Sequence record: OK254197.1
Strand: one strand, 5' to 3'
Origin: Escherichia phage PNJ1902
Length of the DNA: 64,000 nt
The notes beneath the pieces are model-generated. The model searched no databases, had not been told where the DNA came from, and saw nothing but the letters and a program-made list of their open reading frames with translations. The translations under genes were made by a program, and so were the position numbers. Shown piece by piece: positions 3,749-42,222 of this stretch; within the stretch, counting starts at the first letter, position 1, and every line of letters starts with the position of its first letter.

Positions 3749-5268
3749 ATATCGCTGGCCTGTTCACCTGTTGAATTTTCAGTTTTGTCTTTCTTAGCAC
3801 GTTTAGGTTGAGCTGGCTTATCCTTCTCAATAGGGATAACGAACTCAGCTTCCATTTGAGATATATCTTCCATTGCTAGGTTGGTAGTGTTATCCATTCG
3901 CAGAGTTTCCCAGTTCATTTTAGGCATAAACTTCACGCTATCAGAAGAACGAGTCTTAACGAAGTCAAACATAATAGCACCTTGACCATTATCAGCTTTT
4001 GCAGCATTAAGATTAGCAGCCATGTCAGCGGAATCAAGAATCCCCTTTGACATACGTGTTCTACCGTCTTGATCGATCTGGTAAGGAGCTACACCAGCCA
4101 CGTTATGTTTCTGGCAGATAGATTTGAAAGACGAGCTAACAACCATCTGTTCTTTCCAGTCATACATATCAATGGTTTTAGAGTCTGGAAGTCGGGTTTG
4201 GTTAATATAGTCCAGTAAAGCTACTGTAACTTTATCTCCATATCTAGCAACTAATTTATTTAGTTCTACGTCAACTGTTGTAATAGACAGCTCAGGGTCA
4301 TAAACAATAATCATAGGAGTATGTAGTTCATATCCCTCTATTAGCTTACTCTCCATATCGTAGAAATCGCTCATCTTAGCCATTGTGTACTGTTTAACGA
4401 AGCTATCGAAAAGCTCTTCACCTCCATTAAACATTCTAGCTCTAGTTCTGGCCAATCTCAACAGAGCTGCACCTTCTAGAGTATTATTACGCATTGCTAA
4501 TGCTGATACACCAGCTAACATGGCTAGATTACGTCTAAATACTTCATGTTCTTTCATCTCAATTGAGAAGTATGGAGCAATATCTCCATTCAAATATTGC
4601 TGAACCTGTATGTTTGAACAGATAATGGATTTACCAGTACCACGCCAACCACCAAGCAGTAACGTTTCTGTGCGAGCTAAACCAATTTGAGCGTCGAACT
4701 CATTACAAATACCAAGAGCGATTAAGTTCAGTTTGGTATCTTCTTCTCTCTGGAAAATACGCATGTTATCTGCGTTGAATACTTTTCCAGTATTCGTTAC
4801 TTTCTCTTCTAATTTTAAGTGAAGGGAGGCAACTCGGTTGAGAATTTCTCCCTGATCCAGCATTGTTAAATCTTGAAGCACGTCTGTTTCTAGAAGCTTC
4901 AGGAATAAATCCTGCGTATATTCGGCTTCTAGGACTTCAAGTGCCTGTTCCATGCTCACTTCTGGAATTTGAGTGTTAGCTAAGACGACTAGAGCTTGAG
5001 AAAGGCGGGCGTTCCTATTAGCTTCAAGCATAAGTGCGTCAATGGACGGCATTGTGTTATATTTTTTATAATAATTCTGGACGGCTTGGTAAATTGAGGA
5101 GAAAGCGTCATTAAAATGATCTTTATGCAGTTTTGAGAATGTTTCCAATGCTATTTGCTTCTGTTCGGAAGCTAGAAGCATCTTCAACACTACAGCTTGC
5201 ACGTTAAACAAGGTCATTCTCCTTTGCACGCTTTCGTGCCTTCTAAATGCAAAAAGGGGAAGGAGCAT
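3745..5268 (-). CDS. DnaB-like replicative helicase
   Basis: 507 aa; Walker A GGWRGTGKS; overlaps primase by 4 nt; RBS GGAGG upstream. Confidence 0.65.
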   Translation of the reverse strand: MLLPLFAFRRHESVQRRMTLFNVQAVVLKMLLASEQKQIALETFSKLHKDHFNDAFSSIYQAVQNYYKKYNTMPSIDALMLEANRNARLSQALVVLANTQIPEVSMEQALEVLEAEYTQDLFLKLLETDVLQDLTMLDQGEILNRVASLHLKLEEKVTNTGKVFNADNMRIFQREEDTKLNLIALGICNEFDAQIGLARTETLLLGGWRGTGKSIICSNIQVQQYLNGDIAPYFSIEMKEHEVFRRNLAMLAGVSALAMRNNTLEGAALLRLARTRARMFNGGEELFDSFVKQYTMAKMSDFYDMESKLIEGYELHTPMIIVYDPELSITTVDVELNKLVARYGDKVTVALLDYINQTRLPDSKTIDMYDWKEQMVVSSSFKSICQKHNVAGVAPYQIDQDGRTRMSKGILDSADMAANLNAAKADNGQGAIMFDFVKTRSSDSVKFMPKMNWETLRMDNTTNLAMEDISQMEAEFVIPIEKDKPAQPKRAKKDKTENSTGEQASDI

Positions 5269-5299
5269 AGCCCCCTCCCCTTAGGTTTAATTTACCAGA

Positions 5300-6067
5300 T
5301 TATTCAGCAGCCGCAGCTTTTGCATCCAGTTTAGCACGCTTAGCGGCACCATCATAGTCCTTAGCAACCAGACCACGACGAGACAGCATAGATTTAACAC
5401 CGCGCTCAGACTTACCAGTTTTCTCAGCGATCTCAGCAACAGTCATGTTAACCAGATCCAGACCTTCTAACAGATCTTCACGAGTTTTAGCACTTGAAGT
5501 TTCCTGTACCGGCATAGCAGCGATACGACCTTCACGAAGCAGGCTCAGAGCTTTACCACGGATCTGCTTGATATTACGACCGAAGTGAGCAGCGATAGCT
5601 TCAATAGTAGCACCAGCAACAACCTGATTAACAAAATCAGTTTCTTCATCCGGAGTAAAGGAACGAACAGCGGCAGCTTTTTCGGTTGGCTTAACAGAAG
5701 CGGTCATTTCCAGACTCAGGATCTTACCCTGTACCTGTTTAGCACCGAACTGACCACCAGCTACAGCAGCAGCGATTTCAGCATAGGTATACTGACCAGC
5801 ATGAGCGTTCAGGAAATCAACCAGTTCAGCTTCCTGCTCAGGAGTCCACGGGGATTTCTGTACTTCGTTAGCTTTTTGTACTTCAAAACCTTCTTTACGC
5901 AGTTTAGAGCCAACAGAGCGAGCAGTAACATCTTTGCCAGTTTCAGCAGCCAGTTCAGCAGCGATAGCAGCTACTTGTTCTTGAGAGATTACAGCAACAC
6001 CCAGAGCAGTGGCTTTTGCTTTCAGAGACTCAGTTACACCTTCTACGTTCCAGTTCAGTTTAGACAT
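5300..6067 (-). CDS. Ala/Lys-rich DNA-binding protein (T5 D5-like)
   Basis: 255 aa, repetitive Ala-rich composition; position between ligase and helicase as in T5. Confidence 0.4.
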   Translation of the reverse strand: MSKLNWNVEGVTESLKAKATALGVAVISQEQVAAIAAELAAETGKDVTARSVGSKLRKEGFEVQKANEVQKSPWTPEQEAELVDFLNAHAGQYTYAEIAAAVAGGQFGAKQVQGKILSLEMTASVKPTEKAAAVRSFTPDEETDFVNQVVAGATIEAIAAHFGRNIKQIRGKALSLLREGRIAAMPVQETSSAKTREDLLEGLDLVNMTVAEIAEKTGKSERGVKSMLSRRGLVAKDYDGAAKRAKLDAKAAAAE

Positions 6068-6842
6068 TATTATTTTTCTCCAATAGTTCTTTAATCGACA
6101 GGATTTCTATCCCATTCGTTTCGGCTTTCTTATAAGATGAGGAAGAACGTTTTGATTCATCCTCACAGATTAGGTATTTGACGTCTTTAGTAACGGATTT
6201 CTTAACCGTATACCCTAGACTTTCTAAATAGTTTGTTGCATCCGTTCTATTTGCAAAATCTTGCAAAGATCCGGTAATACATACCGCGATTCCTTTTGGC
6301 TGGGCAACTAATTCATCTGTAATGATGATATTAGCTTTTGCACCTCTGATACCTGTTGAGAATTTCCACGGTAGTTCGATAACATCCTTGCCTTGTGGGG
6401 AATTTAGCCAGGCTTTATAGTTTTCTCCAGCCTTACCGTCAGCCTTCACATCGTGGAAGCTAGTGCAATTTTGGGATAATTTCTTTGCTGCAACCTCTCC
6501 AATTAGAGGGATTCCTAAAGAACCGAGAACTGAACCAAAGTCAATGTCTCCGCGAACTTTAGTATTTAATTCGCTAATTAACTTAGCGGCAACCTTGCTA
6601 CCCACGGCTCTAACCAAATCTTCTTCGGTTAGGTAAAATAGTTCTGAAATCTTCGTCAGCTCCAGCTTCTCAATAGTTTTTGGGCCAAAGCCCTTTAACT
6701 TCATTTTTGAACAGAAGTTCTCAATTAACTTACTTGATTGCGCTGGACAGTTGGACTTATTCCGACAGAATAATTGTCCGTTGACAAGATCTAGCTTAGA
6801 ACCACAAGAGGGACATTGTGTTGGAATTTCGATTTTCATCAA
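6060..6842 (-). CDS. NAD-dependent DNA ligase, C-terminal part (Zn finger, HhH, BRCT-like)
   Basis: 260 aa; CPSCGSKL...C Zn ribbon, HhH-like GFGPKTIEKL. Confidence 0.8.
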   Translation of the reverse strand: MMKIEIPTQCPSCGSKLDLVNGQLFCRNKSNCPAQSSKLIENFCSKMKLKGFGPKTIEKLELTKISELFYLTEEDLVRAVGSKVAAKLISELNTKVRGDIDFGSVLGSLGIPLIGEVAAKKLSQNCTSFHDVKADGKAGENYKAWLNSPQGKDVIELPWKFSTGIRGAKANIIITDELVAQPKGIAVCITGSLQDFANRTDATNYLESLGYTVKKSVTKDVKYLICEDESKRSSSSYKKAETNGIEILSIKELLEKNNNV

Positions 6843-40972: not shown

Positions 40973-41473
40973 ATGAAGGTAGCTAAAAATGGGAGAAAAG
41001 ATAACTTAAATGAGTTAGAAATATTCCTCCACAATAACAAACTAGACGTAACCGCTAGTAATTACATGCAAATAGCTCTATGGTATAATGGGTATATAGT
41101 TAGGAAGGCCAATCCTAGTAAGGATAAGAAGTCAAATACATACCAAAAGAGACTAGAGCATAGCTATCAAAGATCCCTAAGAGTAGTACAGCTTTATTGT
41201 TATATCAATAATATAAATAATAAGCTGGGATATATTTATATAATATCTAATCCAGCTTTTCCAGGCTGGTTTAAAGTAGGAGCAGCCAAAGATGCTGAGA
41301 CTAGATTAAATACCTATCAAACATACTCCCCTTTTCGGGACTATGTATTAGAGTATTATAAACTAGTAGATAATTATGAACTCAAAGAAAAAGAAATCCT
41401 AAGTTCTTTTTCATCTAGAAATAATGAGTGGGTTCATGCTCCACTTGAAGAAATAATTGCTTGCGTGGCGTAA
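40973..41473 (+). CDS. T5orf172-domain (GIY-YIG-like) protein
   Basis: 166 aa; GYIYIISNP...KVGAA...RLNTYQT motif; 3' end overlaps tRNA-Leu start by ~15 nt. Confidence 0.55.
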   Translation: MKVAKNGRKDNLNELEIFLHNNKLDVTASNYMQIALWYNGYIVRKANPSKDKKSNTYQKRLEHSYQRSLRVVQLYCYINNINNKLGYIYIISNPAFPGWFKVGAAKDAETRLNTYQTYSPFRDYVLEYYKLVDNYELKEKEILSSFSSRNNEWVHAPLEEIIACVA

Positions 41474-41541
41474 TTGGTAGACGCGCGATCCTTAGGAGTT
41501 CGTGTTAATTCGTGTGGGTTCGAGTCCCTCCGCAAGCACCA
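41459..41541 (+). tRNA. tRNA-Leu (anticodon UAG), class II
   Basis: Perfect acceptor GCTTGCG/CGCAAGC, Leu-type D arm, loop CTTAGGA, long variable arm, A73, CCA. Confidence 0.55.
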
Positions 41542-41653
41542 AATTTGATGGTCAGAGTAAATTAAACCTACTATCTCGGTTGAGCTGTTTTAATGGGTTC
41601 GAATCCCAGCGAGGCGTAACTGCCTGGTGTGATAGGGGCATCATCTTATTATT

Positions 41654-41744
41654 GGAAGAGCAAATCGAATTGGCGACGAAAACCGCTTGGAAAGTGGCTG
41701 ACTGGTAAAACGGCTTGAGAGTTCAAATCTCTCCTCTTCCGCCA
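41654..41744 (+). tRNA. tRNA-Ser (anticodon GGA), class II
   Basis: Acceptor GGAAGAG/CTCTTCC, loop TTGGAAA, ~18-nt variable arm, T-arm GAGAG-TTCAAAT-CTCTC, G73, CCA. Confidence 0.5.
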
Positions 41745-41757
41745 AACAATTTATATG

Positions 41758-41851
41758 GTAGGTCAATCCAACGGCTGGCGCTGGACTCCGACTTGAAATC
41801 GGTTGATCGTAGTGATACGGTGTAAGGGTTCGATCCCCTTACCTACCTCCA
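41758..41851 (+). tRNA. tRNA-Ser (anticodon UGA), class II
   Basis: Perfect acceptor GGTAGGT/ACCTACC, loop CTTGAAA, long variable arm, T-loop TTCGATC, CCA. Confidence 0.5.
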
Positions 41852-41856
41852 AATCT

Positions 41857-41988
41857 TGAAGTATGCCGGAATTGGTAGACGGGGCTGCCTAAAAGGTTTA
41901 TAGAGAACATCCACTCTCTACAACATACCTCATAAAGCGGCTGAGATAAATGGTCTATCTCGTGAAGGTTCAAGTCCTTCTGCTTCTT
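41857..41988 (+). ncRNA. Class II tRNA-like cloverleaf with ~41-nt insertion in the anticodon loop
   Basis: Acceptor TGAAGTA/TGCTTCT (6/7, U1-U72), U8-G9, Leu-type D arm, anticodon stem GCTGC/GCGGC enclosing 48 nt, variable hairpin GAGATA...TATCTC, T-arm GAAGG-TTCAAGT-CCTTC; no encoded CCA. Confidence 0.4.
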
Positions 41989-42102
41989 GATACATCTATG
42001 GCTCAAAGTGTAACGGTGCTATTTGATGCTCTTAGTAAGACTTCCCCGACATGCGTTCGGGAGTAAGCTGCTAAGGCTAGGGTAGAAGAGTTTCGGAGAG
42101 CC

Positions 42103-42222
42103 GCCACAATTGAAAATTCGTACTCGTCTTGAGCTGCGTGCAATAGGAGATAACTTGATTAGTATTCTAGAACATGCTAATTGAGGAAGGTTTCGCTAAC
42201 CCTGCGAGTTTTCAATTGTGGC
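42103..42222 (+). ncRNA. Hairpin-closed structured element abutting tRNA-His
   Basis: 14-bp perfect inverted repeat GCCACAATTGAAAA/TTTTCAATTGTGGC enclosing ~92 nt; right arm overlaps tRNA-His 5' end. Confidence 0.3.

Follow-up and report, generated by a model that had tools for sequence, protein, structure and literature searches.

The stretch of DNA analyzed here, 64,000 nucleotides (nt) of Escherichia phage PNJ1902 (OK254197.1) that we refer to as the window, covers the early-gene and transfer RNA (tRNA) region of a T5-like phage (Demerecviridae), with Salmonella phage STP-SP2 and its relatives showing 98.8% identity to this region. According to ARAGORN at default settings, the + strand holds 21 tRNA genes in the stretch from 32.5 to 44.3 kb. 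Our subject is the 112-nt spacer that separates the genes for tRNA-Leu(UAG) and tRNA-Ser(GGA) and runs to position 41653, the whole of which is taken up by a single element. No ORF (open reading frame), promoter or terminator was found between this element and the flanking tRNA genes, so that it is probably transcribed together with the tRNAs. The element is an RNA structure under selection, not a tRNA in decay. In the fold that we propose it imitates the upper half of a tRNA in circularly permuted form, with T-arm, acceptor-like helix and elbow, and it constitutes a conserved, unannotated extra component of phage tRNA arrays.

The original prediction had singled out at this locus an orphan T-arm-like motif without an acceptor stem. 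The motif, A-TGGG-TTCGAAT-CCCA-G, is indeed present at 41593–41609, 52 nt past the CCA of tRNA-Leu(UAG), and its T loop with closing pair (G53, T54 T55 C56 R57 A58, C61) matches the tRNA T-loop consensus exactly. The seven nucleotides following the T stem (GCGAGGC, 41609–41615) are, as had been noted, without an upstream partner, and pair with GCCTGGT (41622–41628) downstream; the hairpin AGGC-GTAACT-GCCT, also pointed out at the time, lies within this pairing at 41612–41625. A candidate upstream pairing, CTCG/CGAG around the T-arm, is not retained in Sugarlandvirus and was discarded. The 22-mer TGGGTTCGAATCCCAGCGAGGC, which includes the acceptor-like strand, occurs once in the window, even with three mismatches allowed, and in none of 100 shuffles. 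In agreement with the prediction, software calls no standard tRNA at this position: ARAGORN at default settings gives neither a tRNA nor a transfer-messenger RNA (tmRNA) at the element, and Rfam yields no match to the element from any family at E ≤ 10, the models for tRNA (RF00005), tmRNA, tRNA-Sec and YrlA included, whether 901 nt or a 121-nt slice is searched (the latter because shorter input loosens the filters). Relaxing ARAGORN produces calls that proved artifactual, these being a “tRNA-Pro” that borrows its 5′ part from the T-arm region of tRNA-Leu, a D-armless call in mitochondrial mode that takes the T loop as anticodon loop, and a “tmRNAp” call at the 80% threshold that spans three genes. 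The element contains neither a D-arm nor an anticodon arm, and has no free CCA end.

Of the two possibilities then offered, that of a tRNA-like element is borne out but with a larger extent, since the structured RNA spans 41546–41643 and the T-arm and the hairpin after it are two of its five helices (Table 1). Covariance model R1 matches 41539–41650 with 110.8 bits (E = 9e-30), the sole copy in the window. This copy displays every feature by which we define the proposed family, namely P1, P2 and its bulged A, the junction with GG, TTTAA, the T-arm, a closed hairpin of the form GCG...GGY and a place in a tRNA array. Each of the five P1 pairs is doubly changed in some lineage, and in the metagenome members L046, L050/L055/L061 and L059 P1 is a perfect helix of 10–12 base pairs (bp) abutting the flanking tRNAs; in L059 it begins at the first base past the CCA of tRNA-Arg and ends 3 nt short of tRNA-Asn. 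All eight P2 pairs are likewise doubly changed in some lineage, with 98.7% of cells paired, and the bulged A at 41570 is invariant in 19 sequences. The core pairs of the pseudoknot are kept in 19, 19 and 18 of 19 sequences, with changes from CG to AU (three sequences), AU to GC (one) and GC to CG (three), and the pseudoknot covaries as AACC/GGTT in the L050 group, CCG/CGG in phage IT22 and GCAG/CTGC in L059. The T stem has two covarying pairs, UA/CG in 8 and GC/AU in 7 of 19 sequences, with G53-C61 and the loop nearly invariant in the 19 sequences. The acceptor-like “AS” hairpin has six pairs that are paired in 100% of cases, two pairs with double changes, a tip that ranges from 4 to 19 nt across lineages, and a G41611/G41626 mismatch that is present in all 19 aligned members and becomes a G-C pair in the distant member L067. 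The conserved block, which ends at 41644, stops exactly at ...GGCATCAT, the P1 3′ strand, after which the sequence differs between phages. Three other pairings were considered and rejected. For a local “V” hairpin, CGG/CTG, double changes are absent and the pairing breaks down in IT22 and the L050 group; the pseudoknot, which uses the same CTG, was adopted in its place. The minimum free energy (MFE) fold includes a hairpin on the 5′ side, GGT...ACC or GATGGT/ACTATC, that conflicts with the covarying P2. A D-arm-like fold TGAT-AGAGGC-ATCA (41630–41643) is not conserved in Sugarlandvirus and DU_PP_V, and its bases covary with P2 and P1.

Table 1. Parts of the element and its two neighboring genes, with positions in the window.
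Feature	Position	Strand	Basis or remark
tRNA-Leu(UAG), encoded CCA at 41539–41541	41459–41541	+	upstream neighbor; ARAGORN, Rfam
Whole structured RNA (P1 5′ strand to P1 3′ strand)	41546–41643	+	covariance model and covariation
P1 5′ strand, TGATG, pairs with CATCA 41639–41643	41546–41550	+	5/5 pairs kept in 19/19 sequences
5′-side internal loop, GTCAGAGTAAATTAAA, 16 nt	41551–41566	+	3′ part A-rich; last A (41566) invariant
Pseudoknot 5′ strand, C41553-A41554-G41555	41553–41555	+	pairs with CTG 41585–41587
P2 5′ strand, CCT 41567–41569, bulged A 41570, CTATC 41571–41575	41567–41575	+	pairs with GGG and GATAG
Junction, TCGGTTGA, GG at 41578–41579	41576–41583	+	GG in every aligned lineage
Pseudoknot 3′ strand, CTG	41585–41587	+	pairs with CAG 41553–41555
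Linker TTTTAA, directly 5′ of the T stem	41588–41593	+	TTTAA 41589–41593 invariant in A3
T-arm, stem TGGG/CCCA, loop TTCGAAT	41594–41608	+	covariation
Closed acceptor-like “AS” hairpin, GCGAGGC / GTAACT / GCCTGGT	41609–41628	+	covariation
Linker GT	41629–41630	+	between AS hairpin and P2 3′ strand
P2 3′ strand, GATAG 41631–41635 and GGG 41636–41638	41631–41638	+	covariation
P1 3′ strand, CATCA	41639–41643	+	pairs with TGATG 41546–41550
tRNA-Ser(GGA)	41654–41744	+	downstream neighbor; Rfam tRNA-Sec model, 19.7 bits; ARAGORN -ps80

Two alignments underlie these counts, A2 with 16 distinct sequences and A3 with 19, the latter adding IT22 and the pseudoknot. Both were aligned by hand, segment by segment and with N padding, because a plain MAFFT alignment (A1) misplaced the Sugarlandvirus loop deletion and the P1 strands. 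The aligned sequences represent about eight lineages, so that cell counts overstate the number of independent events. In A2 the 26 proposed pairs show standard pairing in 98.6% of cells, against 31–48% when partners are slid by 1–3 columns and 83.6% (standard deviation 1.0) upon column shuffling; none of 500 shuffles reached the observed values, and 14 of the 26 pairs have changes on both sides. The 28 pairs of A3 are paired in 94.0% of cells, 22 of them with double changes, and give a covariation score of 0.536 versus 0.03–0.15 with slid partners. Over the two alignments, paired cells thus amount to 94–99%, and slid controls to 30–48%. RNAalifold, supplied with the A3 alignment alone, predicts P1, P2, the T stem and the AS hairpin with 18 of 24 pairs compensatory, and MFE folding of single sequences recovers most helices in Sugarlandvirus, DU_PP_V, L059, L061 and IT22. 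Erwinia phage KEY, found later, contributes further compensatory changes in P2 (CCC-A-CTACT with AGTAG-GGG).

The 112-nt element occurs in 251 phage records, in 197 of these over at least 80% of its length. Most carriers are Salmonella and Escherichia Tequintavirus and Epseptimavirus, at 95% identity or higher. In BF23 the element is the 112-nt spacer 3769–3880 of AJ604530, at which the expert annotation, with tRNAs, promoters and stable RNAs all listed, has nothing marked. Klebsiella Sugarlandvirus copies are 72–80% identical and stand in the same order of tRNA-Leu, element and tRNA-Ser, Pectobacterium phage DU_PP_V also carries the element, and in Erwinia phage KEY it comes after tRNA-Ala and not tRNA-Leu. 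The T4-like Erwinia phages IT22 and L010 have a full-length match (38 bits) just upstream of tRNA-Met, and pattern scans brought up the metagenome contigs L046, L050/L055/L061 and L059 as well as the jumbo-phage contig L067 (373 kb). Every member lies within a tRNA array and on the tRNA strand; in the L050 group a TGnTATAAT-like promoter is situated about 11 nt upstream of P1, and the element is the first gene after it. The carriers infect Salmonella (many of them), E. coli K-12, Klebsiella, Erwinia and Pectobacterium. Scanning one genome each of 185,579 bacterial and archaeal species with TTTAANNGGTTCRANNCCNNGCGNGG returned two matches, L063 and L064, both GC-rich contigs of metagenome-assembled genomes without tRNA genes, of which the one inspected (L063) reads as protein-coding sequence. 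Looser patterns applied to IMG/VR retrieved mostly ordinary tRNAs with an acceptor reading GCGAGGC, and one more pattern added L067 only. Among T5-like phages tRNA-Leu(UAG) exists in three very different alleles, next to which the element is almost unchanged.

We found the element described neither in Rfam 15 nor in the records of T5 and BF23, nor in the literature that could be searched, which does not include the T5 papers published in Russian from the 1980s until 2004. It has probably been overlooked because the reference phage T5 is without a copy, tRNA finders reject the sequence and the BF23 annotation is blank at this place. In design it is closest to YrlA (RF02553; bacterial and mycobacteriophage), the tRNA-like module of which has the order stem, V, T, “AS” stem-loop, D and stem, and is defined by nearly invariant T and D stem-loops that flank an acceptor-like hairpin (PMC4201824, Chen et al. 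2014). Both have a terminal stem formed from the 5′ and 3′ ends, a variable region ahead of the T-arm, and a canonical T-arm followed directly by a closed hairpin at the acceptor position, and both are circularly permuted imitations of a tRNA without anticodon or free CCA end. Unlike YrlA, the element lacks a D stem-loop, there being 1–3 nt between the hairpin and the P2 3′ strand, and carries its GG in the pseudoknot-held junction instead; it resides in the tRNA arrays of virulent phages, its bulged A is invariant, and only the most distant member departs from its G/G mismatch. We class the element with the tRNA-mimic noncoding RNAs; as a discovery it is modest in scope but readily testable.

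Other small RNAs share one or more of these traits. The stable RNAs of the T5 phage group have been defined biochemically in T5. RNA1, RNA2 and RNA3 of T5/BF23, and species 1 (rnaC) and species 2 (rnaD) of T4, are likewise small RNAs situated among phage tRNA genes and transcribed with them, contain a T-arm-like hairpin and are dispensable in the laboratory, but follow the usual layout of a tRNA, in which the T-arm comes close to the 3′ end and the termini form an acceptor-like stem. None of the T5/BF23 stable RNAs (RNAI, III, IV, 1, 2, 2H, 3 and X) is homologous to the element, as judged with the R1 model and from the BF23 annotation, and kinship with rnaC and rnaD was rejected, R1 matching the T-arm region of rnaC only (16 bits, E = 0.065), which is at the rnaC 3′ end. 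The tRNA-like domain of tmRNA is also a partial tRNA mimic, with a T-arm and a GG-bearing D-loop analogue without D stem; in contrast to the element it has an open, aminoacylatable acceptor stem made from the termini and an mRNA-like reading frame, and the tmRNA models of ARAGORN and Rfam do not match the element. With the circularly permuted tRNA genes of Cyanidioschyzon and others, the element shares the order of the acceptor strands on the DNA, the 3′ strand ahead of the 5′ strand, but those genes yield complete tRNAs through a circular intermediate, whereas the element is without D-arm and anticodon arm. The tRNA-like structures of plant viruses and MALAT1 mascRNA are, similarly, parts of non-tRNA transcripts that imitate the tRNA elbow or minihelix for tRNA-binding enzymes; these are unrelated in sequence and context, and differ in having a free 3′ end or an RNase P/Z cut at a defined acceptor end.

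On these grounds we consider it fairly probable that the element is a self-contained structured noncoding RNA of some 100 nt, belonging to an undescribed family of phage tRNA arrays, that is released by tRNA processing and acts in trans as a tRNA mimic. The structural part of this proposal is strong; the functional part, a role as decoy or adaptor, is one that we infer. In the structure envisaged, the 5′ and 3′ ends would pair as P1 and run on into P2 with its invariant bulged A, beyond which the junction would project the canonical T-arm and then, in the place of the acceptor stem, a hairpin closed by its loop. The pseudoknot would tie the 5′ internal loop to the segment before the T-arm and so free the invariant GG, a candidate mimic of tRNA G18-G19 in the D loop and, by this analogy, the likely partner of the T loop. 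Presumably co-transcribed with tRNAs, the element would most likely be excised by tRNA-processing enzymes: its 5′ end would be set when the 3′ end of the preceding tRNA-Leu is matured, and RNase P, acting on the 5′ end of the tRNA that follows, would cut it loose on the other side. The product would be an RNA of about 100 nt with ends protected by P1. Stacking of the T-arm on the closed hairpin would amount to about 12 bp in T5-like phages and IT22, and this stack together with the T-loop/GG elbow may present the surface that is read by RNase P, TruB/TrmA, the CCA-adding enzyme and other tRNA-binding proteins, and would offer no aminoacylatable end. The most likely action in trans would then be to occupy a protein that binds the tRNA elbow or minihelix, as decoy or adaptor, a type of role that has been proposed for the tRNA-like module of the YrlA Y RNAs (PMC4201824).

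Several observations weigh against this proposal. For the sequence type of the window, the MFE structure (−25.1 kcal/mol) is a different fold, the proposed nested fold comes to −20.6 kcal/mol, and the MFE z-score of −0.42 is unremarkable. The alignments were built by hand with the fold in mind, so that the pair counts lean toward it; P1 is only 5 bp long in T5-like phages, and the pseudoknot consists of three pairs only. No conserved partner gene was identified. Comparison with T5 (NC_005859), which the original prediction had called for, reveals that an HNH endonuclease gene, hegC, occupies the place between tRNA-Leu1(UAG) and tRNA-Ser2(GGA) there, with a 3′ end that overlaps tRNA-Ser2, and that the element is wholly gone; searching the T5 tRNA region with R1 returned no copy but bare T loops alone (E > 1). 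The biochemically characterized phage, T5, is one without the element. SelmaRatti (Bas34) has lost the 5′ half of the element through a T-loop to T-loop deletion, and in TrudiRoth (Bas30) a G-to-A change breaks the G53-C61 pair. The element is, in short, dispensable in some phages.

We think it unlikely, if still worth reckoning with, that the element works in cis, as a processing or stability element of the tRNA operon the tRNA-like fold of which recruits RNase P, RNase E or exonuclease-blocking factors to mature or protect the adjacent tRNAs or the ORFs downstream, and the excised piece of which has no function. Its position would suit such a task, always on the same strand in tRNA arrays, usually 0–12 nt from a tRNA on one or both sides, and ahead of an ORF in DU_PP_V, Eos, TrudiRoth and KEY. 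So would the T stem plus closed helix, which at about 12 bp (T5-like phages, IT22) have the length that RNase P measures, and YrlA of M. smegmatis, with its 7-bp acceptor-like stem, is cut by RNase P (PMC4201824). Yet the upstream neighbor may be tRNA-Leu, tRNA-Ala, tRNA-Arg or a promoter and the downstream neighbor tRNA-Ser, tRNA-Asn, tRNA-Met, tRNA-Leu or an ORF, real tRNAs on both sides already supply processing sites, and a long terminal stem, a bulged A and a pseudoknot are more than a processing signal needs. The closed helix moreover varies from 7 to over 11 bp across lineages, and a fixed RNase P cut is therefore not a feature of the family. Because the neighbors vary freely and the fold exceeds the needs of a cleavage signal, we favor the trans-acting mimic over a signal in cis, as a preference and not as a demonstration. 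A further thought was that the element is a YrlA-type Y RNA whose partner would be Rsr, the Ro60 orthologue of the host (Salmonella has one), and which would link Rsr to an effector. The shared order of terminal stem, pre-T region, T-arm, closed acceptor-like hairpin and terminal stem invites this idea, as do the many carriers with Salmonella as host and the Y RNA-like genes already known from phages. It is nonetheless improbable, as on the sequence the element falls outside YrlA by each feature open to testing: the YrlA model (RF02553) does not match at E ≤ 10, the D stem-loop, among the two most conserved YrlA features, is absent, and the motif GNCGAAN0-1G occurs neither in 41542–41570 nor in the 5′ parts of other lineages. 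There is also no Ro60/TROVE neighbor (which in YrlA would be sought within about 4 kb on the same strand), given that no ORF of ≥216 aa lies within 5 kb of the element and that none of the five window ORFs of ≥400 aa has a TROVE domain, and carriers are found on E. coli K-12, Klebsiella, Erwinia and Pectobacterium as well.

Three readings would dispense with a functional RNA mimic altogether or turn it into a working tRNA. The other half of the original prediction, a decayed tRNA gene drifting neutrally as a pseudogene, does not stand up and is by virtue of covariation already largely refuted, leaving it very little credence. A perfect T-arm and 7-nt acceptor-like 3′ strand without cloverleaf, located in a tRNA array with gene gain and loss, and a locus missing from T5 and partly deleted in SelmaRatti all speak for decay, but the five helices are upheld by compensatory double changes in at least eight lineages. 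Features foreign to tRNA do not vary, among them TTTAA, GG, the bulged A and, save for the G-C pair of L067, the G/G mismatch; the element is conserved across T5-like, T4-like and jumbo-phage contexts, and it is more conserved than the functional tRNA-Leu that adjoins it. Equally hard to credit is conservation at the level of DNA, either as a recombination hotspot or because a homing endonuclease, for instance the T5 hegC product, recognizes or cleaves the stretch. In its favor, hegC sits in the exact same slot in T5, the window has a T5orf172 (GIY-YIG-like) ORF right next to tRNA-Leu, SelmaRatti has recombined between two T-loop sequences, and nuclease genes mark mosaic boundaries of T5-like phages (PMC10644984). 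A DNA target would, however, be expected to be conserved in sequence and not by way of compensatory changes that pair distant segments, and the element is present in phage groups and contigs for which no relationship with hegC is shown. The last of the three, a split or circularly permuted tRNA gene from which a working tRNA would be matured, has next to nothing to recommend it beyond the placing of T-arm and acceptor 3′ strand upstream of the acceptor 5′ strand: the D-arm and the anticodon stem-loop are missing, the P1 end has no conserved loop, several lineages have a closed helix far longer than 7 bp, and the CCA and discriminator context is absent. No permuted-tRNA pathway is known from bacteria or phages.

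The tRNA arrays of T5-like phages are currently explained by codon supply and by the replacement of tRNAs that are destroyed by host defences. A tentative extension of the trans-acting mimic, which we regard as possible but rather doubtful, is that these RNAs form a new class of phage tRNA-elbow mimics, a by-product of tRNA operon processing that would titrate a host protein binding the T-arm/acceptor half of tRNA and so serve the phage in anti-defence or takeover. Candidate targets would be RNase P, an enzyme that repairs or modifies tRNA, or an immune nuclease directed at tRNAs or the sensor of such a nuclease. If true, this would complement the known role of tRNA arrays against tRNA-cleaving defences. 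T5-like phages, including BF23 and those of the BASEL collection, are model systems and common candidates for therapy and biocontrol. The proposal can be tested directly because natural controls exist, namely T5 (hegC), the SelmaRatti half-deletion, the TrudiRoth T-stem mutant, and BF23 and many BASEL phages with the element intact. The element also extends the YrlA style of permuted tRNA mimic beyond Ro60 systems, which suggests that this design arose, or was reused, more than once.

A number of side observations concern individual carriers. The tRNA-Leu(UAG) alleles, of which there are at least three (L007, L014, L025 and others), read GCTTGCGTGG, GCGTGATTGATGG and GGGGCTATGCTGG; the junction ...CCAAATTTGATGG plus the element is constant across them, with the mosaic boundary exactly at the tRNA 3′ end. 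In SelmaRatti (L042, 349–455) the T loop of tRNA-Leu is joined in register to that of the element, ...GAGGGTTCGAATCCC-ATCGAGGCGTAAC..., such that the 3′ end of tRNA-Leu and the 5′ half of the element are removed, and a “hypothetical protein” is annotated over the remnant; judging by the sequence, this looks like recombination between two 13-nt GGGTTCGAATCCC repeats. “Hypothetical protein” coding sequences are drawn across the element in several GenBank records, for instance key_099 (KEY, L072 385–648) and bas34_0094, and are probably over-predictions. On L059, an AT-rich contig of 44 kb, seven tRNA-Asn(GUU), two tRNA-Ser(GCU) and two tRNA-Arg(ACG) genes surround the element (5137–6408), and neighboring ORFs include Dps-like and MsrA-like proteins. 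In IT22 (L005, 281–560) about 290 nt of noncoding sequence separate tRNA-Met from the element, and the segment ACACTTGCCTAGCAGGTGGAAAC therein resembles T4 sequence just downstream of rnaC (L065, around 4880–4905); this stretch may be another conserved RNA. A partial look-alike (18 bits) lies beside tRNA-Gln on the 188-kb metagenome contig L053 (2586–2730, − strand), with TTTAA, a poor T stem and a GCGGGG...CCTGGCG hairpin, and the 3′ end of the tRNA, TCCATTGCCCCCAGC, recurs as a direct repeat on its flanks, reminiscent of integration-site duplication.

As to the neighboring genes in the window, the two tRNA-Ser genes downstream (41654–41744, GGA, and 41757–41851, UGA) have long variable arms and both escape ARAGORN at its default settings. 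Their only Rfam match is to the tRNA-Sec model, at 19.7 and 38.3 bits and under the gathering threshold, and they are recovered by ARAGORN with -ps80 and -ps; they correspond to tRNA-Ser2 and tRNA-Ser1 of T5/BF23, the homologue of the former being annotated tRNA-Ser2(GGA) in both records. The region 3′ of tRNA-Ser(UGA), about 41861–42217 and starting GTATGCCGGAATTGGTAGACGG, is homologous to T5 “RNA1”, a tRNA-like stable RNA, which in T5 is followed by RNAI and RNAIII ahead of tRNA-His. Upstream, a 166-aa ORF (40973–41473, + strand) with a T5orf172/GIY-YIG-like domain (Pfam PF10544, E = 1.5e-10) extends 15 nt into the start of tRNA-Leu(UAG), where in T5 tRNA-Ala is followed directly by tRNA-Leu, and is probably a mobile endonuclease tied to the tRNA-Leu allele of the window.

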